Under the pieces are notes generated by a model that was given only the letters and a program-made list of their open reading frames with translations, did no database searches and had not been told where the DNA came from. DNA of 57,868 bases, counting the filler, from Sphacelaria rigidula (Eukaryota), in the NCBI GenBank assembly GCA_964200075.2. It is 7 parts of 7 records of this genome, joined end to end, with 100 filler letters (N's around TTAATTAATTAA, not from the genome) between each part and the next. Parts side by side here need not be neighbours in the genome. Positions count along the whole stretch, not along the records: positions 24,846 to 33,026 come from CAXNAA020011998.1; 6 more parts are not named here. One strand, written 5' to 3'. The translations under genes were made by a program, and so were the position numbers. Below, in pieces: positions 7,374 to 55,601 of the stretch (positions are counted from its first letter, which is position 1; each line of letters opens with the position of its first letter).

Positions 7374-7535
7374 CTATGGGGGTAGGATGGAAAGAGGACG
7401 CACGGCGAGGGTTGGCGAACGGAAAGGCGCGTGGTTAGTTGGAAATTAATCTCACGACCATGTTCGCGAGATGTAAGTTAATCCATATTCCGCTGTAGCA
7501 GAAGAGCGAAGTTGTGAGGGATGGGGGTGGGGGGT

Positions 7536-7811
7536 GGGGGGTACTCATGATCATGCATAACGAAGTCGTATGACCATTGACCTCGCATCCTTACCAAGCC
7601 GGGACGGAGCACGCCGGGTTTTCGCCGGACCGGGCTCGCACTCAATCACCAAGCGCGGAGCGCCGTGGTGTGTTGGGCGAGTCGCATGAAGGGTGAGATG
7701 CATCCTGCTACGCCTGTTCGGCCCGAAGCCTACTGGTTATGTTGCATGAGGATGACAGCTTACAATGAGTTGCTTCATTTTCTGGTACTGTCACTTCCAG
7801 AGACAGCCACG
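7536..7811. repeat. ~275-bp interspersed repeat, family B
   Basis: Reverse-complement copies at 35561-35841 and 55268-55520; partial copies at 49689-49781 and ~57612-57653. Confidence 0.85.
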
Positions 7812-7859
7812 AGTTCTACACTGCCTCATCGTTCGAACACTACGTAGTACGATCAGGGG

Positions 7860-7930: not shown

Positions 7931-8182
7931 TCCTACTCCTAATAGAGACACCTCCAACATGTCGGTGTTCATCACGTTTCTTCCATACATTATACAAAAA
8001 AAAACACGTATCTCATCCCCGTCATGTTTCGCGGTCTGTGGCCACCACCATTCATCTCCTCGTATAGCCATCCCTTTCTCCCTACCGGCTAAATGGGGGG
8101 GGGGGGGGGGGGGGGGAGGAAAGAAGTTATGGGCTACCCCTGCCCGGGGCACCCCAAACACCTTGACCCATGAAATATTAAA

Positions 8183-8282
8183 NNNNNNNNNNNNNNNNNN
8201 NNNNNNNNNNNNNNNNNNNNNNNNNNTTAATTAATTAANNNNNNNNNNNNNNNNNNNNNNNNNNNNNNNNNNNNNNNNNNNN
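8183..8282. other. Artificial contig linker (N44-TTAATTAATTAA-N44)
   Basis: Exactly 100 bp with a palindromic core giving stops in all six frames; recurs every ~8281 bp. Confidence 0.97.
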
Positions 8283-16464: not shown

Positions 16465-16564
16465 NNNNNNNNNNNNNNNNNNNNNNNNNNNNNNNNNNNN
16501 NNNNNNNNTTAATTAATTAANNNNNNNNNNNNNNNNNNNNNNNNNNNNNNNNNNNNNNNNNNNN
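16465..16564. other. Artificial contig linker
   Basis: Same 100-bp structure. Confidence 0.97.
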
Positions 16565-18599: not shown

Positions 18600-20241
18600 A
18601 TACCGATGTGACTTGCGACGAGGCTGGCGACGCGTGAAGATATAGATGCCGCTTTGCGCGAGCATCGCCCGCCGCACATCCCACCGGAATTCCCACAATG
18701 TCCAGCAAAGGATCTCAAGGTCCCCAACGGATACACGCACGCGGTGCGCTCGGAGCACGGTGATTTATTGAGGGACTCGATGGAGGGAATGGCGGGGAAT
18801 TCTGGAGGCGAGGACGATTGATTCAGCGGAAGAGCAACTCGTGGACAACTATATACATGCAAAGTGGGTATATAACTCGAAGGCGGACGAGTTTAGATGG
18901 CCCACGAAGATGAAGTCGAGACTAGTAGCAAGAGGAGATATGCAGAGGGAGAACATAGATTTTGGAGAGTTGTATGCCTCCACTGTAGCAGTTTCTAGCG
19001 CACGTTTGTTGGCGACTCTGGCTTGTGAGCAAAATATTGCGTTGCGTCATTTTTATATCGAACAAGCTTTTGTGTAGTCTAAGTTGGACGAGGACGTTTT
19101 CATGCGGTTGCCACTTGGTTGTGGAAGCTCATCTGGTAAAATAGTAAGACTCAACAAAAGTTTTTACGGATTGAAACAGGCAAGTAGGCAGCGGCATAAT
19201 CACCTGGCGGAGTGTTTATTTGTTTGGGGATTTGATCAGTGCTTGGCGGATTCATGTGTATTTCGGTTGATTGAGGATGGCAGGGTGATGATCACCATTG
19301 TAGTACATGTAGATGATATATTCGCAGTGGGAGAGAGGGACAGATGTGACGAGTTTGGTAAAGCTCTCAACAGGACGGTTCCAGTCAAGAACCTCGGGGA
19401 TTTGCGTTGGTATTCTGGACTGTACTATGAGAGAGAAATTGCAAGGGGGACTCTAAATATTCCACAAAAAACATACGCAGAAGAGTTGGCGAACGATTAC
19501 GGAATAGAGTGGGGAAAGAGTATCCCCATCGCTGTTGGTGTGAAGCTTGAAGAGTTCAGTGTAGAAGAGCAGGCAACGGAATTTCCATTTCGGGAACTTA
19601 TAGGGTCACTGATGTGGCTGGCAACTCAAACGAGGTCAGACATATATAACGCAGTACGTGCAGTAGCGAGGTACTGTGCCTCACCAAAACACCTTCGTTG
19701 GCGTGCTGCGCTTGGTGTTTTGGGGTATATCAAGCGAACAAGTTCGCTGGGGATTTCTTTTCGCAGAGGAAGTATACAGGGGCTGAGCTTTCATGTGTTT
19801 GCAGATGCCGACTACGCAAGTACGGCAGCTGATAGGCGATCGATATCAGGAGGGCTAGTGATGTGAGGAGGTGGATGTGTGTCTTGGTTTTCAAGGAGTC
19901 AGAAGTGTGTGACGCTGTCCACAACGGGAGCAGAGTACGTTGCCATGACAGATATTCTGAAGGAGGTATCGTTTTTGAGACAGGTTTGGCGTTTCATGTT
20001 GCCGTAGATGGGAATGCCATGCATCCCGGTGTTTGAGGATAATCAGGGAGCTATTGAGTTGGCAAAGCACCCAACCACGAACTCCAACTCCAAGCACATC
20101 GACGTACGGCATCATTTTATCAGAGAGTTGGTTGGGAGGAATGAGGTTTCGGTTATTCACGTGAGATCGGAGTATCAACATGCAGATTTCCTCACTAAAG
20201 TGTTGCCGATAGAGTCTTTTGAGTCTCATCGCAACCATTGA
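18600..20241 (+). mobile_element. Degenerate Ty1/Copia pol (RT plus RNase H)
   Basis: KSRLVARG, YGLKQASR, VVHVDD, FRELIGSLMWLATQTR, FADADYA, FEDNQGAI, SKHIDVRHHFIRE, QHADFLTK; several in-frame stops. Confidence 0.95.
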
Positions 20242-20721: not shown

Positions 20722-21330
20722 AGGGGAAGGACTAAAGGAAGGGGTTTCAGTTTGCTAAGTAGATGACGTTACCGTATGTCTGTACACGGGTGGGATGATG
20801 TTTTTTGTGCTTGGAAATATAGGATTGAATATTGTCGTTTTCGGGATGAATCATCCTTGTACACTCAGATGAAAATACGTCGATTAGGGTTTGAGACATG
20901 AGTAGAGTTGAGCCATGAGTAGGAGGGCTGATCGAGTATACTCACACTCAATGATAGATACATGTAAACAGGCCTGGATGCCAGGGAAGTGGATATTATG
21001 AGTGGATCATGACATATGGGTGAAGGGCAAATAAGAGATACAGTTCTGTTATTCAAGGTATACCCGATGTGTTGGTTGCAGCAAAAATCTGCAGAGAGGC
21101 ACACGCCCAATCGCGTGGCCAAGGAATCAGACTTTGACGTGTTATTTTTGCACGAGTGGTTTTTCATGATTGAACCCCGCCCCCTCTTTGGTAGTGCACT
21201 TGTTAGGTTTTGACGTTTTGGGTGGGAAGTGTAATATACATTGATCAACAAGGGAATCAATTCAACAACAGAGGTCCCACGACCTTTCTCAAACATAGAC
21301 CCTTGCGCCGAGGAGGAAATTCAGCCTTTA
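20722..21330 (+). mobile_element. PPT-like purine tract, LTR and PBS-like remnant downstream of Copia pol
   Basis: GAGGGGAAGG at 20722; ~20975-21330 is an inverted homologue of 17565-17950; CAAACA is followed by TAGACCCTTGCGCCGAGG. Confidence 0.6.
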
Positions 21331-23682
21331 ACACCTTTCCACCCCTCCAATCGCTGTGCCAATGCCTTCGACGCAGACGCCACGCATTCCTCCGGGTTGA
21401 AAATGTACGCTAGAATTCGGTGATCCGTGAAAAAGTGCACGCCATTCCACGATAGATGCTCGAGACGACCAAAAGTGCTCACGATAGCAAAACCTTCCTT
21501 GTCAAATGTTGCCCAACGCATCTGTGAGCCCTTGAAATTACCACTAAGAAAAGCCAGCAATTCAAGCGTCATGTCTTCAACCGGCAACCGTTGTTGCATT
21601 TCTGCGTCAGGAACCTGCGTTAGAAAACTACCCCAATGACACTCGGATGCATCCGGAAATATCAGCTCCTGGCAACCGGGGCGGGGATGGAACAGCGTCA
21701 TAGCATGAGCCACCATATCATTCGTTTCCGCCCATGCCTGCAGCCTGTCTTCCGTCCACGATGCGGGCGGAATAACGCGGTTTTTGGCCACCCGCTTCGT
21801 GCGCCTTGCAGCCCCCACCATGAGTTCTTCTAGGAAACCGCGCAAGGGCGCCACTACTTCGGCCATACGTAGCAGCGAGGTACGCAACCCCTTCATTACG
21901 TGCAGGAATTGCAACAGTTCTGCTGCTCCTTCTGGACGCCGCATGTTAAACAAACTTTACAAGCGGACCGGATCATGCGAGACGCGGCCATGTGAATATA
22001 CTTTCCCACACCACACTAATTCACCAGCAAAAAAGTTATAGTTGTGGGCAGCTGTAAACAGACCAACACTCTCTAAGCGAGCCAAGATTGCATCAAGCGT
22101 ATCCAACAATTCGTCTTCCGTATCCGCGAAGGAAGAGACATCATCCACTCAAATCTTGCATTTCAAGCCATCTAACAGGTCTACCATGACACCTTGAAAA
22201 TAGGAAGTAGCATTGAACACGCCTTGCGGTACTCGTCGCGGGGTAAACATGCCAAACGGAGTCGTGATGGTGAATATCTCTTGCGCCTCTTCGGCCAACG
22301 GCATCTGCCAGTACCCCTGTAGGAGGTCCAACTTACCGAAGCATCGCGCACTCAGCAGGTCTATCATATCGGATTCCTGATTGGGCATGACACCCAGCGA
22401 CTTCTCCATCTGATCATTGGATGGCTCCGTCATCGCTGACAAGACGGAAAGAGTCCTTCTTCGGCACCGCCATCGCTGAACTGGACCACACCGCCCGTAG
22501 ATTCCTGAACACCATCCCAAACGCCACAAGAGCTCCCATGCAAGACGCTAACCAACTGGACTTTACCGGATCATATCTCCTCGGTTTTGCCTTCACCGCG
22601 GCCGCCTCTGGCTTCAGTGTAACCCTCATGGGTTCCACGCGTGCATGGGGATCACCCATCAGCGCATGACAAAACGCGTCAATGTGGCGATACAATATGC
22701 CACGCAAGCGCTCCGCTTTTGAGATATTGAGGCCATTTGCCACAGCACCCGTCATGCTTTCCTCCGGCGCAGCCATTCGCGCGGACTCCTTTCCTGCCGG
22801 ATCCATAAATATACCGGGGCCACGCTTCACTAAGCGTCCCACCGCCCCATCACACTCCTCGGACACCTGCCCCCCCGTCTCCTGGAGAGCATCAACCGAC
22901 GAGCTCACTCTGCGACTGGCCAAAAAAGCAAGCGTTTCGACACCCGAACCGAGCGACGGCATTTGCGTTTTTAGGAACTCTAACAGCCGATCATACGAAT
23001 CGACTCCTAGTCCCCGAAGCGTCGGTAAGCCCAATAGAACTACACCATCCGTCCCCGGCATGATCGCAAACGATATCGGGGGTAATTTCGCTGGCCCCCA
23101 GGTAGTCCTGAACGCCAACTGTAGGGGAATCGTGCGCTCCGTCACATTTATATGCTGCCCCGATGCGGTAATGGCCTGCCGCGCCACGAGCGAGAACGGA
23201 ATGCGGATTTGCTCACCAGGGAGTAGACGCTCCAGCATTTCCACAATCAGCACCGACACGCTCGTGAAATGGGCGCCTGAACCCAACACAGCGTTGACCG
23301 ATATGGCTCCCCACGCCCGTTTATTTGGGAGGAAATATATTGATCCTCGACCGGCACCTGCTCCGCCGACTGATTTGTCGTTATCCCCACTTGGCGCCAC
23401 GGTTGCGCGTGCGGCGCAGGCATAGACACCCCCGCCGGGGTCACCGGCCCGCCGGCGGGTACGAAGCCCCGCCCGCAGAACCAAATTGCAGCGGTACTCC
23501 GGCCGACGCAGCAGCGAATCAAAATTTCAGCTGAAATCCGGCCTGTCTTACTCTGCTGCCGGCGGCGCCGGGACCGAGCCCGACACTAGGGTGGTCGGTC
23601 CCACCTGCACCGCCCGTTGCGGAGCAGCAGCCCCTGTGGCTGAGCCGGACCTAGAACCGGACCCCTGCTGACGCCGCTGCCC

Positions 23683-24745: not shown

Positions 24746-24845
24746 NNNNNNNNNNNNNNNNNNNNNNNNNNNNNNNNNNNNNNNNNNNNTTAATTAATTA
24801 ANNNNNNNNNNNNNNNNNNNNNNNNNNNNNNNNNNNNNNNNNNNN
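24746..24845. other. Artificial contig linker
   Basis: Same 100-bp structure. Confidence 0.97.
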
Positions 24846-25001
24846 CCCTGCTTGGCCTTGCGGCGCAGTGCTTATCGGACTCGATGGTCTGTTACTCACG
24901 AGCTCAAGGGTCATTCCTCTCGACTGCGATTGTTCAATGTGGCCAGCCGCTGACCTCGTGTCACCCCTGGCCGGGCGTGTTCTTTGAGAGTGACGCCAGT
25001 A

Positions 25002-25306
25002 TCACCTCGTGATCAGACCACGACACCTGTCCGTCCGAGCAAGACGAGGCACCACGCTCTCGATTCTCTCCACCAGGTTGTGCGCGATGCGGGCGCTTTT
25101 GGTGATCCGATCCCAATCTTTCGGTGTGGGTGTCATCTTGTTCGCTCTCGAATGTCTGTCGTGGTACGGTCGAAAATCGAGGATGAATGTTGTTTGGGTA
25201 CCGTCCTTGGGAGTTTTCATAAGCATCGCGATACATTCGAAATAAAGACACATCTGCACTCTCCGCCTGTGATGTGTGGCCTCGCTTATCCTCGAAAACA
25301 GCCACC
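25002..25306 (-). pseudogene. Tentative exon 4 of the ParB-like gene
   Basis: Acceptor ttgcag|G in phase 2 gives (MLV)RWLFSRISEA...PKDWDRITKSARIAHNLVERIE; internal structure and end are uncertain. Confidence 0.35.
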
Positions 25307-25704
25307 TGCAATTCGTGACCTCCGGTGTTTATACGGAACGATATCGTCCTCCAGTGATTCTGGTACAAAACACTGTTGATCTTATATTTTTTTTGCTACA
25401 ATGAGTGAGGTCACACATCACAGCCGGAGAATGTTTTTGCATTTTAATTTCGAAACCTTTTCGATGTTTATGAAGGTTCCCGAGGTTCGTCCCCTACCAA
25501 AAAATCTATCCTCAATTTTGAAGATAGACTGCTTCGAGCGGAGGGGGGGTATGTGTAGTTATACCCTGGATAATCGGTCCTGACGATCCATCAAACAGGA
25601 CACATACCACATGACACACTCTGGTCATCCTCCGGTGCGGCGAATTATTGGGAGATAACCCGAGACTATCACGACAAGCGACTGAATGTACCGGCGGTAC
25701 ATAC

Positions 25705-25924
25705 CTTACGAGCATATTGACGGCGATCGATTGCGCTGCGGGTTGGCGGGTAGATCGCCGTAGGCCTTGCTCTTCAGGTACGTCAGCGAAATACATTTCG
25801 CGTCGATACCGGGGTCCGACGTCTGGAACGCCCAGGAAATGGCTTTCATTGCTTCCGGTGTAGTGGCGAAGCAGACCTTTCGCCAGTGCCGCATCGCCCC
25901 CAGCGACAGAGAATTCAAACCCAG
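25705..25924 (-). pseudogene. Exon 3 of the ParB-like gene (LGLNSLSLGAMRHWRKVCF...), with an apparent 1-nt frameshift near 25740
   Basis: Acceptor aaacag|, donor AG|gtatgt; phase 0 matches exon 2. Confidence 0.55.
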
Positions 25925-26397
25925 CTGTTTTCGGTAACGAGGGGACACCAACGGACCGTGGAGAAAAACATATAGCAGATGCGGTGAATCCGAGTCGGCC
26001 GTTTCAGCGTCCGTGGAAGTTCGAAATGATTCATATTGCCGTACACAACTTCTCCCGACTGAACAGAATATCGGTACCGGTCCCCACATCGAATCGTCGC
26101 CCCCCCGTCGTGCGTGCTGCATTACATACGTGGTCGAGGTCTATCGTGTTCGCTGCACCCTGGATTGTTTCTCGGCGTATGACCGGGTGGGAGACACAGT
26201 ACACGCGTCGTAAACCCTCCGGCAACTAGTTTACAACAATATAAGCGGATTTGACTCGGTTCCGAGATGTAGCATAAATGATCCGCGGCGCACATATGAT
26301 ACAATACGACTTTAAACCTCACCCAATGCCCACTATCGTTCCCGTGTAATGCAGACCCGGTTTTGTAGTACCTCGTCTTTCACATTCCATTACTCAC

Positions 26398-26540
26398 GTT
26401 CGTGAACTCCTTTGCTATTTGTTCCCCCGTAACGGCATCACTCCCCGTCCTCTCCTGGACCGAGGTTATGATCCCAACGTGCATGTAAAGCTTGTCGTAC
26501 GTGTTGCGGGGGGACAGAGTCTCGCCGACATCGTTTAAAG
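26398..26540 (-). CDS. Exon 2 of the ParB-like gene (ALNDVGETLSPRNTYDKL...AKEFTN)
   Basis: Acceptor gaacag|, donor |gtgagt; phase 1 matches the exon 1 donor. Confidence 0.65.
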
Positions 26541-28296
26541 CTGTTCGAAGGCAGGCAGGCAGCAGCAACGATTGACGCGGTTATCATTCTCCGATGTTCC
26601 AGACTTTTTCTTTGAAAACATGTCCTCTCTGACGCAGCTGATGCTGGGCAACAACGATATAAATCTGTAAAGTCGTCTCTTTGGTCCTTCATATGTAATT
26701 CTGTATTCGCTCGGACGATCCCAAGACACTTTGCGTTTGAAGGCGGACAGAGGTAAAACATTTGCCAGACTCGTATGTTAGTCCGAGCACGGTCAGCCGG
26801 GAAACAAAACGCCCCGTGTTTCATCCGACAGACCGTTCTTGAGCAAAAATGCAATTGTTGCAAAAATCACCTGCGGCCACCGGAAAATGCAACGGTGTTT
26901 TGGAACCGTCTCAACGAGTGCAGCCATACAATCGCAGGTGTCAACATTCGCATACAAGGTTGTTCGTTCGGCCAAAAAAAAAAACGGCCACCAGAAAAAC
27001 GCGAAGGTGTCCTGCAATAGTCTTAACGGCTGAAGCACGACATTGGAAGGTGTCTGCGTTTGGGCCATAATCCGACGCATCTGGACCACATAAACAGTTC
27101 GTGACAGGTTATTCTTGCCTGCCATAAGAATCGGCATGAGAAATGGCGACAGCCGAGCTGTCGATTATGTCTGACTACACATTACTTGAGAACTGTGGCG
27201 TTGGAATCTGCTTTGCTTTGTTTTCGTTTCGAATCTGAGAATTGAACGAAAGGTCTGAACAAAATACGCCAAAAGACGTTCCGTCGATGACGATCGTCTA
27301 CTGCCCCCCCCCCCGCCGCCACTTCTTCGCACAGGGCCCGGAGAGAAGGGGGAAGATAATGAATGGCAAAATATTTGGACCAATCACAGCCTTGCCATGC
27401 ACAAAATGCGAGAAGGGCCCACCTTACCGGGATTAACAAAAGAAGCGAGAAACGAAACAGATTTCTGCCTTTTGTCGGAGAAAGACGGCCGTAAAACATT
27501 ATCGCAGAACAAAGAATAATAGAAGTTGGGGACTTTCGGGAAAACATCGCAGGTTTGTCGCAAGGCTCGCAGATATTTCCCGCAGGGACGACATTGGGTG
27601 TGCGAGACGCACGAAATCTCGCTGGCAAATATATGTATGCAAAACAACAACCAGAAGCACCCAGGCGCCGAAGCAAAGATATATGTGCCGGCATACTCGT
27701 GTCTGCGAAGTGTAGGGCCATTCTGTTTTTTTAGAGCCCGAAAAAGAGAAAAAGGCGCATGAAAACATTTGAGGTGCCGATTTCTTCTTTTTAGGGGCTG
27801 AAAAAGAAGAAAGGCACACACAAAAAAAAAGCGCAAAAAGATGACAAAAAGGCGCCGAATACGAAAAAAAAAAGAGGCGAAAGGCATGAAAACAGTACCC
27901 GAAAAACACGAGGAAAAGTAGCCAAGGATCCAAAGTCTACACCTCAGGCACACGCGAACCGTCGTTTGAATCATAGACCCGCGGACGAGCAGTGTTAGAG
28001 GCCGAGCCTGAATTTCTGGCGCTAAACTAGTGTGCAGCCACAACAACTCCCCCCCCCCAATGAGATAAGTCGTGACATCCCTGGCCGGTTCTCATCCTCA
28101 TGCACAGCGTACACGCTCAACCCCGACACGTTTTTTTCACATGCTTAAATCGGATGACTTAATCGTTATGTTGGCATTTTTTAAACACTAGGCCGTGCGA
28201 CAATTTTTTATCTTGCATCAGATAGTTCAATGTTCTCGAAACGATTGCGGAGGCACGTGGCTACAGACAATACCATCGGCCAATATTGTGACTCAC

Positions 28297-28708
28297 CGTC
28301 GCCAAGGATTCGCATGACCTCTGGCCAGAACTCATGGTACATTCGACACGGGACGCTGTGATCTTGCTCGAAAATCGATCTCGCCGCGGAGATCTCATGA
28401 TTTCCGTCCAAGACGCGAAACTCGCACGTCGAGAGAAACTCCGACGTTATTCCTCCATTCTCCGGAACACCTTCATGTGGCATCACTATGGCTGGCGGAT
28501 TGTGCGTGAGCCACCCCTTTGACTTCAACGAAGTGATGACCTTCTCCACTCCACGAGGGTTCAGCTCGCGGGTGAGGGACGTCACGGCGATTTGAGATAA
28601 CTTTATCGGAAAAGTACCTACGTAGTGGCTGGTGAGAAGGATTTCCATGTTCCGCTGTACTGGCGCTACTGTCCCTGACGGCTGACTTCTGACATCAGGG
28701 GAATCCAT
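28297..28708 (-). CDS. Exon 1 of a gene with a ParB/Sulfiredoxin-like N-terminal domain
   Basis: TRELNPRGVEKVITSLKSKGW...PAIV...FRVLDGNHEISAAR matches the ParB/Srx pattern (R-x-L...L-x-x-S-I-x-x-x-G...P-I-x-V...I-D-G-x-H-R-x-x-A); ATG at 28708; donor G|gtgagt. Confidence 0.7.
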
Positions 28709-29293
28709 TAGGCTGAAACAACGGTTGCCTGCTTCTTCACTGTTGTGGTATGCAGGCTGCGGGCGGTAGTGCAGTGGGTTGTGTAAGGGACGGGGGGGGG
28801 GGTGAGGTGAAGGAGGGTTGAGCAAGGGACGGCGAGAACGTTCTAATATTGCGGTTAGTTGCAGGTCACGATTGGGACACGTTACCTACCTTTATCCACA
28901 AGGACACCTGTACTCGGAATTCGACAACATATCTGGGTCATATCAGTCTCGCATGAGTACTAATGAGCCATATTCTTCGATAATGTATTGCTTGGTAGCT
29001 AGTACGACGGTATCTTTCTTACGAGCTCCACTTTCCGTAGGATGGTGACCCACTTGCCGCGTGCCAGGTGCCATACCACTGAAACAATCCCACCAGTCAG
29101 GTAGGTGAAAAGACCTAAAAATTCCGATATTTATCGACATGTATGTGTCCCATTCTCTGATCACGCTTCGGGTGCACATGGTCAGTTGTAACAGGACCAC
29201 AGGATGTTTGTCCCGAGATTCTGACGATCAGGGCATGTCGATTTGTGGTGTCGGAAAGATTGATCTAAACGTGGAACAACACCAACGTCGTCC

Positions 29294-29892
29294 TTGCTGT
29301 CCAAACATGACCACCCCGCCCACGCTGCCATAAACGTATTGGCGTCGCCTACTCTCAAACTCTCGCTTACCAGAGGAATTAGTGTGGGGCGTGCGTTTAT
29401 GCCGATTATAGAGGCGGGCCGCCTCCTGTTCGTGACCTCGGTTGAACCCACAGAGCGGAGCATCGAATCATGTGGGCATACGGGCGGCTTAACTCCAAAA
29501 AGAAGGCAAGAGCAATCCCCTCTCGAGTCGATCGTTCCGGTGGCGGGTGCAACTCTCTCCACACAGCCTATTGCGCTGCAAGATATGCTTGCATCGAGTT
29601 TCGAGTGCTGTCGCAGTCTACGCTTTGTTGAACGGTTCGTAGAAGGGACGCTTGATGCTCAGAGGTTGGCGTCGGAGCAAGAGGACCTCAGTCGTGTCGT
29701 CGCGCGCAAAGCAAGACTGGCTTGGGTTCGAGAGCACGTGCCGTATCAGAAACCCTGTAAAAACATAGGGTCAATGCATGCTTCTGACGGCGTGATGTGT
29801 AATCAGTTCTTCACAAGAGCGTTTGCTGTGTCGAAGAACCTCGTTGAGAACGCCAAGAAAAACCCGGGTGCTCCATCGGTATCAAGAACCAC
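29294..29892 (+). CDS. Cys-motif ORF/exon, possibly the N-terminus of a DNA transposase
   Basis: 200-codon open frame with FECCRS...VMCNQFFTRAFAVSKNLV ending at a gtgagt donor; divergent from the ParB-like gene; no catalytic domain visible. Confidence 0.45.
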
Positions 29893-30960
29893 GTGAGTAT
29901 CTTATATCTCGTCGTCAAGTTTGGGCAGATGTGTGACTCCCGCGGTCGTGTAGCAAAGCGAACATATTATGTAGATTCCACATAATATACGGCGGTACTG
30001 TACTAGGCAAGCTCGATGTCAAAATAGATCCAAAATGTGTGTTACCACAGCCTGCTGTGACCGTGCTTTACTGTAGCGCCGGCCGACACATACCGGCGTA
30101 CTGTTTCTTGCCGTCGTACCCAGCCAAAACATTCAACATGTGTGACTGGATTGGTCCGCAGTAGGCTTCGGACGGGTGTGAATTCGCCGGGGCGCATCTA
30201 GGAACAACCGGTACAGGTTTGAATCTTAAAATCGATTACTGTATCCAGTTGTACTGTTTTGCGGCCGGGGTCCGCCTCGGAACAGTTTCACCGGCTGACA
30301 GTCCAGGAACATTCGCGGGTTTCCAGAGGGCAGGCGGGTTCGACGAACAGCCGGAGAGCTCAAGACGTCAACCATTTGTTTTTGGAAGTAAAGACTCCGC
30401 TCGCAGTATATGGGTCCACCTGACCCTCCTTGCGTTGCCAGCATAGCTTCACACTGTCTGTAGTGTTGTTGGGAAACACGAAGCAGAGACATCAGCAGCG
30501 TGCATGTAACTACGGAAACTGAAAGGTGCTCGTCGAAGACATACTGTTACATACTGTACTGGCTTTGCATGAACTCGACTGCGGGGTCAAAACCGGTCAA
30601 GAACTTTCCTGTATTGCTGTCTATGCATGTGTCCTACATTCACATGTTCATGAAAAATGCGTGTGGTATTATGACGGAAGAATGATTCTGAATCTCGAAC
30701 ATGGCATGGTCCAACCCAGTCTACATGCGGTTTTGTCGTGCCACATCGACACATGGAGCACCTCTAAGGGAATCTGCACAGTGGCCGCAGGCGGCGCATA
30801 GGCAATATGCGCAATTTTTGCGCATGATATGCCCACTAAGCGTTTCACAACCAAAAACATGCGTCTTGAAAAACACAGAATTATGCAAAGCCTTAGGCGC
30901 GCATAAGAGGTGAAAGCCTAAATATTATTGCTCAATTGAGTTTCTCACCGTGATGCGCTC

Positions 30961-31430
30961 GTAAGACTCTATTCGTGATATTCAGAGGGTAGTTTCAGAT
31001 TCAGAGTGGATGCTCTAGCGTTCCCGACAGGATTTGTTTTTTGTTTTTTTTGGGCACACGTGCTGTGCATGCAGCTACCGTACAGTACCCCATTCGAGTA
31101 TTTCGGTGGTCTGATTGGTGAGATACTGCACAAAGCATTTTTATGCCTGGGGGGGGGGGCATTTCGGAACTGAAACTGTTTCAGGCACTAATCAGTTTTT
31201 CCTGAAAGAGCGGATCTTTTGTTGCAATGGGCTGACTACGTAGCTGCGATCAAGTGATGTTGTGTCAAATTGATCGTGAAGGTGACAGCTTTCATTGAAG
31301 CCACAGCTTCACCAGCCGGGCGCACTACTCCTCGAACTGTGGCGACATCAAAATCGACGGGAAAGTCGATTGTTTCGGGTCTCTCCCTGAATCTGAAACT
31401 ACCCTGTGAATCTCACGGATATAGTGTTTC
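30961..31430. mobile_element. MITE with ~44-bp imperfect TIRs
   Basis: ATTCGTGATATTCAGAGGGTAGTTTCAGATTCAG (to 31004) is inverted at CTGAATCTGAAACTACCCTGTGAATCTCACGGAT (from 31387) with 3 mismatches in 34 bp. Confidence 0.75.
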
Positions 31431-33026
31431 GGGTGTTCTATCAGGGGCGACGGTGGACCACGCGACGGCAGGGATCCTGTTCACCGAAACAAAATCNNNN
31501 NNNNNNGTACGGACAAAGCATGCCGCACCAGAAAGCTATATACTTCTACATGAGAAACAAGCAGGTGGGTAAATGTTGGTCGCGCTTGTACAGCCATTGT
31601 TTCGGTCTCGCTTCTGGACTGATATGTGTGTGTGGGGGGCTCTCGCGGCATCACTCACGATAAACCGCGTCTTATTTTTGTTTCGTTTTTTTTTTTTTGC
31701 CAAACCATTTGAGGAGGCAGTTGGTAAATATCGTTTCGATTTGTGTTTTTGCTGGGCTAGAGGTACGAGCCTGGAACATCTCGATCCCCGACGGTGTTCA
31801 TAGTCTTCGATTCCAATTCGAAATGCTGGACCACCGACTACCCCTTAGCGCATCTAGCACGCGATTTCGGAAATTGAGCACAGTTTTTACGGAGGAATAA
31901 CCTTGGGAACCGCCACAAGCATAAAAAATCTTTCGAAATAAAATTACAAATGCACTCTCCGGCTGTAATGGGTGGCGTGCTCATCATGGGAGAAAACGCC
32001 GGTCATTTGTAAAATCCCGTGTTTTTCAGGGGGTTCTGGAATACAAGAGCAGTGTAAGAGACAGGAAGGACCGGAGGATGAACTTGTTCCGTGTAAGAAC
32101 AGGATTTCACAAATTGCAGACGGACTATTGTTCAGGAGGAGCCACGCCACACGGCACAATGGAAGAGGGCAGATTCTTTTTTGTATTGCGGAAATGTAGC
32201 GATGCTTACGAAGGTTCCCAACGCTCAACCTCAATAAAATATCCATCCCCAATTTTCAATATCGCGTCCAATCTGATTCAGTTCAGAAGTCGGATCCATC
32301 CCCCCCTGCGAACAGCGTCGCAGAAAGAGGCAATGCGGTGGATGACAGTACAGATATACGCGCCACGCCCAGGACGCAGCGCATCGTGCTTGTGTACTCG
32401 TTGTTTGCCTTCATGCGCACGCTGATGTTGCGCTAACAACTTCATGCGCGCGCACATTTTCCTAGCCGTGTGGCGTAACTCTCCGGCGTTGTGGGCTCAA
32501 TTTCCTGCGCACGAGCCCTTGAAACACGCGACCACCTTACATCCCCAATGACAGAAAGTGTACGATGCGTTCGTGGAGGATATGCGTAGTACGGGAGGGG
32601 GGGTGGCCGCAAGTCTCAGCTAATTTTACACCACGGTGCGCAAGGACCGACCCCACTACAAGGCCAAGGACGGCGGCACATTCATGAAGTGTAACGCGTG
32701 CACTCTGTACCATGACACCCTTAATGGAAGTTCTGGTGTGAGGGTCACCGCTGACCCCGGCAAGATGGACTAGGTCGCTATGGAGCAGAAGGCGCACTTG
32801 CATGTGAGTCGTCTTCTCGTCGAAATTGTCGGCAGCTCGTCATGTTACCGGAAAAACGAGGATACGCAATTCGTGAGATTACGCCATGAATAGCATCCAA
32901 AGCAGCGCAGGTGCATCGAATTAGTCGAGGGGAGGATATTGCCCGACCATTATATAACAGCCGATTTTATTTTTTGGGGTTCATACAAAATATGGGGCTG
33001 AAGTGGCATATCTGTCTTGCACGAAA

Positions 33027-33126
33027 NNNNNNNNNNNNNNNNNNNNNNNNNNNNNNNNNNNNNNNNNNNNTTAATTAATTAANNNNNNNNNNNNNNNNNN
33101 NNNNNNNNNNNNNNNNNNNNNNNNNN
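33027..33126. other. Artificial contig linker
   Basis: Same 100-bp structure. Confidence 0.97.
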
Positions 33127-33374: not shown

Positions 33375-35560
33375 TGGTAGATAATGGGGGGGGCCGGGGA
33401 CCATAGCTTGTAGCTTGAAGCTTGCCAAGCGAGAGGCCAAAGGCTGCAATACCCTGTGTCCAGGGGCTGCAACGACCCACTGTTGCGTCATGTATCATGA
33501 GTGTTCGTAGTGCGTACACGTTGTTTCGATAGGTGGTTTGGGGTGGCATTCAAACTCAATGATCGTAGAAAAGTCTTATTTTTCAATCAAAAACATTTTT
33601 CAAAACTTCGAAGACCCAAATTGCTGTCTTCTCCTTATGCTAGAAGGTGCGCCTCGTGGGGGGATACTCCACAACGCCCCAACAAGGACGCGAACGGGGC
33701 GCATAAAGTACGCATATTTTCGCTGAAAAAAGCTTCAGGTGGGGCATGAAACAAGGGGGCAGAGCTCATAAAAAAAAAAATGAGCTTGGTTTTTTTGAAA
33801 AAATGAGCTTGGTTTTTTTGAAAAAATGAGCTTACGGAGCCAATGCCTATCGTGCGCCAGAAGGCGACAAGTACAGTGTAGGTGCGCGATGAAGAAACGT
33901 GCAGGGGGACAATGGGGCGGGGCGAGCGGGGGGGAAATCCCGCTGACCCAGGTCACTTTCTACAAACGAACGCAGTCGATTTTGTGTTGCAAGGGATTTG
34001 TGCCACTCATTTGCAACCCATCTTGCAATTTTATTAATGTTTGAAGGCGCAAGCAGCAAGCATGTTTCATAGGGTTTGCGTGACGGCCTTCTTGCGCTGA
34101 CCGCCGTGAATATTAAGGTTGCTGCAACCGGGCCGAAACTTGTCTGACCCGCGGTCGCTTTCGAATAAAGTAATCGCAGCCGACAATGGTATGGAGCTTG
34201 CGAGCCCTGGTGTAAACTGCTGCATAATTGTGTTGCTCGTAGCGAGACGCTCATTGGCAAGCAGGAACACCTGCTCCGCGAGCATTAGTCAAACAGTGTC
34301 GAGCACGTCGATTCGTAAATAAGTTGAGCTGTTGTTTTTTTACCTTGTTCTCGTGTCCATACGATCATCAAATATTGAATCTAACTGTACACTAGAATAT
34401 GGTAGCCTACTACCACATGATATTCAAGTAGTTGATATCTATACTGAAGTCGAGGAGTAGTCTAATACACACTAGATTTAAGGAATTAGCACAGACCTGC
34501 CGCCCGGCGCCCAACGCCCCGAAACCTCTTTTTCTCGATTTTTTCAACGTTGGGGGGCTATGTTCCTTGAAAAATAAAAAAATGCTTCTGCGGCCTGGGG
34601 GGCGGTGATGTAACCATTTCCCGATATGAGGCCCCTCGCATCATGTTTCATCATGCATCAATCCCTCGTGTATGCTGACCTTCTCGTACATCCACAACCT
34701 CTGGTGGAAAAAGAGAAACTTGGGAGGGGGGGGAGGGGGCGTTCCGAGATCGACGACCATGCCGGAGAATCATAAACTTTTCAATGAAATTCACTGAAGA
34801 TCTTGCATACTGCTAGTACGATCTTGCATACTGCTATTTTCAGCGCGCGGCTACTGTATAGATACCCTGACCCACGAAGCCAAGACACGGACCAGCACGA
34901 ATCAGCAATTGCAGTGCTCTCGACAAGCTCCATTCGATTGTTGTGAGCATCTTCGCCCAAGGGGTGTAACGGTCGTAAAAACCAGGTCGTGTCCAAGCGC
35001 GCCCCCGCACGCATGCGTTGGGATAACTTCGGCAAACGTTCATGTGACACGAATATCTCATCAAACCGAGTTGTCTATTTTGCACCTCGAGCATCACCAT
35101 ACTCCCGAGAGAGGGTTGCTTCACGAGCCGTCCCCCATGTCCTTCGCTATGGCCCGTGGCCCTCTGAGCAACCTGCCTCCCCGTAGCAAGAGGGGGTACA
35201 CACCCTTTTCACCCCCATTGCACTTGACTCACCTCTGTGGCTCACGTGACTTTTGTCAATCCACTTCGAGGGTGGTCGTTAGCTCAATAACGGCAATTTT
35301 TCGCCACTGCTCCTAAACATGGATTTGCAGTTCAAGCACCTAGTGTGTCTCGTCCATGGGTCAAGTTGACACATCATTTTTCACTTCATGTATGACTTGT
35401 CAGCTATGGTTTTTGTCCCAACTTCTTTCTTCTCGTGTCACTTGCAAACTTGTCCCCTCCCCTTCCACGGGGTGGAAGAACGTCGATTCCGTGCAAAGCG
35501 GATGGCCATACTGCTTACGTAGTGTTTGAATGGTAAGACAGCCATTAGGCAGTGTAGAAC

Positions 35561-35841
35561 CCGTGGCTATCTCTGGAAGTGGCTATATACCAGAAGATGA
35601 TGGAGCTCATTCGCGTCTGTGGTCCGAACTTCAAGATGGTCAATACGCTTCGGGCCGAATAATCCCACGAAGATGCAGCTCACCCTCCATACGACTCGCC
35701 GAACACATCACGGCGCTTCGCGCTCGGTGAGTGATCGCAATTCTGATCCGGCGAAAACCCGGCGTTCTCCGTCCCGGCTTTGTAGGAGTGCGAGTTCAAC
35801 GGTCATATGACTACGGCATGCAAGATCGTGAGTACACCCCC
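35561..35841. repeat. Family B interspersed repeat copy
   Basis: Reverse complement of 7536-7811. Confidence 0.85.
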
Positions 35842-41307: not shown

Positions 41308-41407
41308 NNNNNNNNNNNNNNNNNNNNNNNNNNNNNNNNNNNNNNNNNNNNTTAATTAATTAANNNNNNNNNNNNNNNNNNNNNNNNNNNNNNNNNNNNN
41401 NNNNNNN
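41308..41407. other. Artificial contig linker
   Basis: Same 100-bp structure. Confidence 0.97.
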
Positions 41408-49588: not shown

Positions 49589-49688
49589 NNNNNNNNNNNN
49601 NNNNNNNNNNNNNNNNNNNNNNNNNNNNNNNNTTAATTAATTAANNNNNNNNNNNNNNNNNNNNNNNNNNNNNNNNNNNNNNNNNNNN
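49589..49688. other. Artificial contig linker
   Basis: Same 100-bp structure. Confidence 0.97.
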
Positions 49689-55267: not shown

Positions 55268-55520
55268 CGTCTCTGGAAGTGGCGATACCAGAAGATGAAG
55301 CAACTCATTCGAGGCTGTCATCCAAAAGCAAGATAATCAGTTCGCTTAAGGCCGAACAATCTTAGCAGGATGCAGCTCACCCTTCATGCGACTCGCCGAA
55401 CTCATTACGGCACCTCGCGTTTGGTGGTTGATTGCGAACCTGGTCCGTCGAGAACCCGGCTTTGCAGGGATGCGAGGTCAATGCTCATATGACTACCGCA
55501 TGCAAGATCATGAGTACACC
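55268..55520. repeat. Family B interspersed repeat copy
   Basis: Homologous to 35561-35841. Confidence 0.85.
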
Positions 55521-55601
55521 CGCCCCCCATCCCCTGCCCCCCCATTCGCCAGTGTACATATGCACCTTATGAAGACATATAATTATGATTATTTGGTGCG
55601 G

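Follow-up and report, generated by a model that had tools for sequence, protein, structure and literature searches.

What kind of gene lies on the minus strand of a short contig of the brown alga Sphacelaria rigidula, and can this copy still make its product? The gene sits within a window of 57,868 nucleotides (nt), the whole stretch of DNA analyzed here (assembly GCA_964200075.2). It had been predicted from its sequence, between positions 25002 and 28708, to be an intron-containing gene with a domain like those of ParB and sulfiredoxin (Srx). We found that it belongs to a spliced brown-algal family with a predicted ParB fold, that close relatives recur many times with their introns, and that this copy has lost a motif arginine and the reading frame of its third exon. 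The locus is probably a dead copy of a gene that a large DNA transposon carries as an accessory, such as the one described for Sola1-1 of Ectocarpus, and we give this reading a probability of about 0.6. The gene's own contig comprises only positions 24846-33026 (8181 bases (b)) and ends ~180 b past exon 4.

Splicing, family and fold

The three exons of the original prediction recur, to the base, in a deposited S. rigidula gene model (P0001, 301 amino acids, 100% identical). Read from the sequence, they have AG/GT sites and compatible phases on the minus strand. Contigs from public sequencing runs were placed on positions 24900-28900 and accepted from 90% likeness, so that they stem from the window copy or from close paralogues. 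In runs X1 and X2, contigs join 26540 to 28297 (1756 b skipped), 25924 to 26398 (473 b) and 25155 to 25705 (549 b), and all three joints read CT..AC on the plus strand, which is GT..AG on the gene's strand. Both runs have little or no intron cover and were treated as transcript-like because their cover is confined to exons and the introns are skipped. None of the three splice joints was present in any contig of runs X5 or X6, even though these contigs cover every bin; the two runs were taken as DNA because the introns are fully covered. The contigs thus display the splicing pattern of the family, and not expression of the window copy. The third joint also displaces the tentative last exon of the original prediction, which had been started at 25306: positions 25306-25156 are intron with a foldback repeat, and exon 4 starts at 25155.

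The first intron is shared well beyond this copy. Among 77 aligned members of the family, the phase-1 donor after exon 1 is read through in 64, used for splicing in six and treated otherwise in seven. The residues of the read-through (G, C, S or R, then E or K) are the translation of N/GT followed by GAG or AAG, i.e., of a GT[GA]AG donor, and the six spliced models continue with x[LCF]N past the junction. Most family matches are short open reading frames (ORFs) in which exon 1 continues into the intron. The original prediction had named exon junctions not conserved among paralogues as an outcome that would speak against it; the position of intron 1 is kept family-wide, which is the reverse.

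When exon 1 was queried against 1.84 billion representative proteins, 103 representatives were recovered at E<=1e-3 and 36 at E<=1e-10, the best non-self match having an E value of 8.2e-32 and 51% identity; a coding signal of this strength greatly exceeds chance expectation. All named sources are brown algae (Sphacelaria, Ectocarpus, Pylaiella and Cladosiphon), and every named entry is an "unnamed protein product" or a bare gene identifier. In the 77-row alignment D101, G102 and H104 never vary, G65 and R105 are conserved in 90% of rows or more, and the consensus is ...SIxxxGWLxxxxPxV...VLDGNHRxxAL...RVY. Exons 2-4 of the window can be aligned to four full-length models (P0109, 454 amino acids; P0112, 528; P0108, 876; P0114, 359), among which N160, R169 and D173 (P0109 numbering) are invariant. 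Full-length members also have a PSxST motif before an HWRKV-like helix, followed by a QALxLQ...R segment. When longer forms were sought in additional protein searches, the matches were confined to the query's own cluster or to three brown-algal proteins. A pattern scan of viral_contigs gave 47 pattern matches, none of which encodes a relative. A scan of metagenome_contigs gave 23 distant loci, and the three that were examined offered no useful context: two (L002 and L007) encode prokaryote-type DUF4032 proteins and the third (L001) has no Pfam match. One Ectocarpus member, P0080 (431 amino acids), has ~330 unrelated residues ahead of its ParB-like exon 1, and this N-terminal part may be a neighboring element gene fused by the gene caller.

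An AlphaFold model of P0001 was built with the 77-row alignment. Its mean predicted local distance difference test score (pLDDT) was 76.5, rising above 90 over residues ~20-135. A Foldseek search of the PDB placed ParB-CDP (6sdk) at the top with E 4e-5 and probability 1.00, followed in order by Noc, Myxococcus ParB, KorB, PadC, sulfiredoxin and SbnI. At E<=0.001 there were five matches, all of them ParB or Noc chains, and the remaining matches listed are proteins of the ParB/Srx fold. Structural alignment with VIA-align gave Z 10.4 against 6sdk_A (root-mean-square deviation (rmsd) 2.5 A over 93 residues, model residues 26-142). Further chains of ParB, Noc and PadC scored 10.0-10.3, vs. 7.2-8.5 for sulfiredoxin and 7.4-8.2 for serine kinase and SbnI. 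A search independent of Foldseek ranked PadC first of 48,161 chains (Z 10.0). Among its first ten, the other matches to the N-terminal domain were sulfiredoxin, KorB and serine kinase, and the rest matched the long helical hairpin at 220-294 generically. The predicted ParB/Srx fold is thus borne out by the models.

A helix with a conserved Asn, followed by a helix-turn-helix (HTH), had also been predicted. The invariant Asn and its two companion residues agree with this, as does the AlphaFold model of the Cladosiphon relative P0108 (pLDDT 75-97 over residues 60-390), in which an HTH directly follows the N-terminal domain; in the window model pLDDT at that place is ~50. The top 28 VIA rows for P0108 are all of the ParB/Srx fold, and in its ParB and Noc rows the alignment takes in almost all of the chain together with the DNA-binding domain (7nfu_B, Z 9.0 with 193 aligned residues between model positions 60 and 334; 7bnr_A, 184/195 residues). 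Because P0108 aligns with whole ParB and Noc chains, the family appears to be ParB-type in fold and domain order and not merely Srx-like. Judged from these models, intact members are predicted to be two-domain ParB-type proteins with an N-terminal domain (SIxxxGWLxxxxPxV, VLDGNHR), an HTH and a helical region.

Sequence profiles gave a fainter picture. The Pfam matches that recur, all weak, are GmrSD_N (9 members), DUF1015 (9), DndB (3), DUF6551 (2), DUF3723 (2) and ddrB-ParB (1), most of which we take to be families of the ParB clan. The PHROG profiles named "ParB-like partition protein" matched the nearest relatives with an intact sequence, P0002 (phrog_4715, 5.1e-6; phrog_1033, 4e-5) and P0104 (phrog_1033, 9e-4), and did not match P0001. 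A KorB HTH profile matched the Ectocarpus relative P0113 weakly (E 0.038, below the cut-off). Profile searches of PDB sequences yielded nothing meaningful with alignment A1 (phycocyanin best, E 0.038; SbnI, E 0.68) and only low-complexity matches to the acidic tail with alignment A5. Beyond the acidic linker, residues 401-463 of P0113 match residues 696-756 of P0108 (E 5e-5), which indicates a further domain common to both. An Atlas feature search with P0108 620-876 returned N6_N4_Mtase clusters at 0.92, to be read only as a lead, and this additional domain, present at least in members from Cladosiphon and Ectocarpus, is a putative N6/N4 DNA methylase. The gene's contig ends short of this region.

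Lesions and copies of the gene

The family carries a Gly-x-x-Arg phosphate-binding motif (the GERRxR, GCHR or DGxHR type), and the window copy does not. Its DGNHE was found in no other of 105 fetched proteins, 71 of which read DGNHR, eight DGAHR, one DGCHR and one DGNHC, in line with the decay originally suspected from this motif. Run contigs over position 28395 all read C (X5, n=7; X6, n=2), which turns the codon into GGG and the motif into DGNHG; close copies therefore also lack the motif Arg. The absence of the sulfiredoxin GCHR cysteine, noted earlier, can be read directly from the sequence. The PSxST motif of the recognition helix is lost as well and reads SLSLGA in the window copy.

A frameshift had been suspected near 25740. 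Exon 3 is one base short there, which brings a TAA into frame at 25708-25706, ahead of exon 4. Part of the contigs carry an extra base behind 25742, namely one in X1 (depth 1468/4383), two in X2 and four in X5 (depth 1945/11116); no X6 contig does. With X at the break, the frame reads ...GDLPAXPAAQSIAVNMLVR followed by HSRANK... and can be aligned to relatives. Since most contigs share the shorter state, the break is no private assembly error, and the frameshift marks a whole subfamily. Taken together, the Glu in place of the motif Arg, the missing PSxST and the stop in exon 3 indicate, as judged from the sequence, that the window copy is unable to make a ParB-type protein.

The deposited model P0001 bridges the break with a non-canonical gap of 23 nt at 25759-25737 (GG..CA or, with a one-base shift, GC..AG), and its last exon ignores the donor at 25026 and ends with the stop at 25002. 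The locus thereby illustrates how annotation pipelines can mask a frameshift behind a non-canonical 23-nt "intron". Comparison with P0105, a paralogue from the same species on another contig, had suggested a second frameshift near 25125. This was rejected on the match of RHSRANKMTP in the window to RWNRFNANTP in P0109: the window frame fits P0109, so it is the P0105 model that is out of frame. The deposited exons 2-3 of P0105 are in the wrong frame (e.g., GFEFSVAGDDAALAEGLL...) and the family frame is regained later; P0105 may itself be broken, or its model may be at fault.

On the 4 kb examined, X5 and X6 contributed 1552 and 1313 contig pieces, respectively, at 90% likeness or more, of which 397 and 296 were at least 99% alike. 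The pieces cover all 30 bins, introns included, and contain many variant letters. A joint from 26569 to 28727, seen in three X5 and two X6 contigs, skips 2157 b (exon 1 and most of intron 1) and represents a deletion derivative; another deletion joint links 25989 to 26146. More than 1,300 contig pieces that include the introns, together with the deletion variants, identify a repeat family. Copies that share their introns rule out retroposition and indicate spread at the DNA level. This repetitiveness had been missed by the original prediction, as had the published ParB-like accessory genes of giant algal transposons.

The features of the gene are collected in Table 1. An X1 contig departs from the window at 25025 and continues ...DRFEEGVHRMIN like P0105, and transcript-like cover is low in the 24900-25033 bin. 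P0105 extends ~230 amino acids further, a stretch that has no match on the gene's contig; the remaining 3' part of the gene is off this contig. Exon 4 of the window copy can be aligned to P0109, P0112 and P0108. The foldbacks in intron 3 (25205-25492) and upstream of the gene (31894-32221) each consist of two inverted units of ~90 nt, the four units being related, and among the DNA-like contigs several deletions fall inside the intron-3 foldback; it may be a repeat resembling miniature inverted-repeat transposable elements. On the plus strand, 26614-26766 matches the DGNHR region of P0002 and P0104 weakly (35% over 54 amino acids, E 0.003 in 8 kb, with an internal stop). This antisense match is probably due to chance and possibly a very old inverted fragment.

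Table 1. Positions of the gene's parts and associated repeats, counted along the window.
Feature	Position	Strand	Remarks
Exon 1	28297..28708	-	ATG at 28708; 137 codons + 1 base; ParB-like N-terminal domain (from models)
DGNHE motif, residues 101-105	28394..28408	-	Family counterpart DGNHR
Intron 1	26541..28296	-	1756 b, GT..AG, phase 1; joint in X1 and X2
Exon 2	26398..26540	-	Conserved Asn helix (ALNDVGE...PRNTYD) and first HTH helix (GEQIAKEFTN)
Intron 2	25925..26397	-	473 b, GT..AG, phase 0; joint in X1 (2 contigs) and X2 (1 contig)
Exon 3	25705..25924	-	Second HTH helix (LSLGAMRHWRKV); one base short at 25743/25742
Intron 3	25156..25704	-	549 b, GT..AG; foldback repeat 25205-25492; joint in X1 and X2
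Exon 4	25027..25155	-	RHSRANKMTPTPKDWDRITKSARIAHNLVERIESVVPRLARTD...; frame intact once exon-3 break is read through
3' remainder to contig end	24846..25026	-	Short intron and diverged exon 5 possible (tentative; by eye)
Foldback units	25205-25280, 25412-25492		Recurring at 31894-31976 and 32184-32221

Linkers of N44, TTAATTAATTAA and N44 occur at 8183-8282, 16465-16564, 24746-24845, 33027-33126, 41308-41407 and 49589-49688. Their spacing of ~8282 b divides the window into seven separate pieces of 8180-8182 b each, and because these are separate contigs, the neighboring pieces give no genomic context for the gene. The third contig contains retrotransposon remnants, with a Copia-type reverse transcriptase (RVT_2, 1.8e-16) and reverse transcriptase-linked RNase H domains (8.6e-11), at 19078-19866 (+) and 21321-21956 (-). 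Contigs 1, 5, 6 and 7 share dispersed repeats of ~100-300 b with 76-87% identity (e.g., 7523-7829, 35544-35841 and 55270-55534), none of which occurs on the gene's contig.

Transposon carriage weighed against its alternatives

Our preferred reading is as follows. A multi-exon family of brown algae exists in many intron-bearing copies, some with internal deletions, and is transcribed and spliced. It probably serves large DNA transposons as an accessory gene, as for Sola1-1_Ec32. By analogy with ParB, its protein might bind a nucleotide, recognize sites in the transposon that encodes it and hold the DNA there or mark it, possibly by methylation; the window copy is a dead member that cannot make such a protein.

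Several points weigh against this reading. We found neither terminal inverted repeats nor a target-site duplication nor a transposase on the 8.2-kb contig, which is also the extent of DNA covered for the Sola1 transposase and the AACCG..CGGTT ends. Pfam at the cut-off recognizes nothing in the exons, in the relatives or in the 13 ORFs upstream of the gene; no family member (0/77) matches at any Pfam cut-off, and ParBc (PF02195) was never matched. The N-terminal stretch of P0080, in which a neighboring element gene might be seen, has no Pfam match and no match on the gene's contig. No methylase was detected in the P0108 C-terminus by Pfam at E<=10 or by PDB sequence search, and AlphaFold pLDDT is <50 over that region. 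The likeness to the Sola1-1_Ec32 protein is drawn from the published description of that protein and not from its sequence. As to the runs, the RNA nature of X1 and X2 is a guess, X5 and X6 lack a DNA record, and summed contig depth is no copy number. Finally, the shorter form at 25742 is common and perhaps transcribed, which fits a dead subfamily and may also fit an unknown shorter product.

The absence of transposon hallmarks from the contig also suits an ordinary, non-mobile host gene of a lineage-specific expanded family, whose window copy would be functional or would only look broken through an assembly error. Such a gene would be expected to be spliced and apparently transcribed, as the family is, and to be conserved with its intron position, as it is in four brown-algal genera; moreover, the break falls within a run of AA/AAA, in which assembly errors can arise. 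We nevertheless consider a host gene unlikely. Against it stand the more than 1,300 contig pieces that each run places on 4 kb, with intron sequence and several internal-deletion variants among them, and an error private to this assembly is at odds with the shorter state of most contigs at 25742. In addition, the motif Arg has been replaced, by Gly in close copies and by Glu here, and the deposited model stays in frame only via its 23-nt non-canonical gap.

Phaeovirus-like endogenous viral elements are common in brown-algal genomes, and ParB-like genes are said to occur in giant viruses. An integrated giant virus gene would also account for the phage clusters that are the Atlas feature neighbors of P0109. 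It is hard to reconcile with the three spliceosomal introns (473-1756 b), which are confirmed and conserved across the family, with the lack of a relative among the 47 matches of the one viral_contigs scan and with the absence of viral hallmark genes from the contig, and we regard it as improbable. Least probable is an enzyme of the sulfiredoxin or serine-kinase type, which would act on a protein or small molecule instead of binding DNA as ParB does. Sulfiredoxin, SbnI and a free serine kinase do match the N-terminal domain at Z 7.2-8.5, yet the motif (DGNHR or DGNHE, not GCHR) has no Cys, higher scores go to two-domain ParB, Noc and KorB chains, whose alignment with P0108 extends across its HTH domain, and the weak KorB HTH match of P0113 points the same way. 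A dead transposon gene thus remains our preferred reading of the locus.

Relation to known systems

ParB-type cytidine triphosphate (CTP) switches are under active study by those who work on bacterial chromosomes, and to our knowledge their eukaryotic counterparts have barely been studied. Here a brown alga has a spliced, apparently transcribed, many-copy family that is predicted to follow the full ParB layout and is recognized by no Pfam model. In comparison with the ParB, Noc and KorB clamps (6sdk, 7bnk, 7nfu, 8qa9), the modeled N-terminal domain superposes at Z ~10 with an rmsd of 2.1-2.8 A over 88-99 residues. As in the clamps, it precedes an HTH, and its SIxxxGWLxxxxPxV and VLDGNHRxxAA motifs stand in the same order as the ParB motifs box I and box II, names that we presume to apply to them. 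Identity is only 10-15%, however, and the algal family has DGNHR in place of GERRxR (with Glu at the last position in the window copy), long helical insertions in the HTH region and eukaryotic introns, and is not matched by Pfam ParBc. Sulfiredoxin, the best-known eukaryotic protein with a ParB/Srx fold, resembles the model in its core fold (Z 7.2-8.5), whereas the algal family lacks the catalytic Cys of GCHR, has an added HTH and C-terminal region and scores lower against sulfiredoxin than against ParB proper.

Phage and prokaryote fusions of ParB_N with N6_N4_Mtase form the first Atlas structure row for P0109, with a template modeling (TM) score of 0.45 by query, which is below 0.5 and serves only as a lead. 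That cluster is 80% viral by members with a record, and its suggested domain order is the same; it differs in that there is no significant sequence match and in that the algal methylase part is putative. The fungal family DUF3723 is matched by two of the 77 members over the N-terminal 46-92 region (best E 0.061, 12.4 bits vs. a cut-off of 22), and an Atlas feature match to it scored 0.90; in the literature searched, no paper names both DUF3723 and ParB. DUF3723 rides on Starship elements. One could imagine a two-domain ParB-type family of giant transposons that loads onto its own element in a nucleotide-dependent manner, marks it in a methylase-like way and is distant kin of fungal DUF3723. 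We hold this to be doubtful; if true, a ParB-like "self-recognition" module would be common to giant eukaryotic transposons across kingdoms.

The closest counterparts come from algal transposons. According to PMC12477816, the giant KDZ, EnSpm and Sola-1 transposons of Ectocarpus carry transcribed accessory genes that are often pseudogenized. Among them, Sola1-1_Ec32 (21.5 kb) has a ParB-like/DNA-methyltransferase accessory gene whose 1104-amino-acid product is proposed to bind and modify its own element, and a table of the same source gives the Sola1 ends as AACCG..CGGTT. The gene studied here resembles that gene, as far as it is described there, in being brown-algal, intron-bearing and transcribed, with a ParB-like N-terminus and many copies; the C-terminal domain of its full-length relatives has N6_N4 methylase neighbors in the Atlas, which count as a lead only. 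The two differ in that the longest relative here has 876 amino acids vs. 1104 and no methylase is found in it by profile search. In the red alga Bostrychia, PAG3, which joins a ParB-like part to a 2-oxoglutarate (2OG) oxygenase, is located on Plavaka elements beside inverted-repeat arrays, as stated in bioRxiv 10.1101/2025.02.11.637652. Fusions of a ParB-type HTH to Dam-like methylases are described for chlorophytes and chytrids by Iyer et al. (PMC4738411).

Being a dead copy, the locus has small value of its own. Its family supplies intact DGNHR members that bear on the recognition or marking of self-DNA by ParB-like proteins of giant algal transposons, as put forward in 2025 for Ectocarpus and Bostrychia. 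ParB-like accessory genes of algal transposons are already known as a kind, and the S. rigidula gene adds a member to it.

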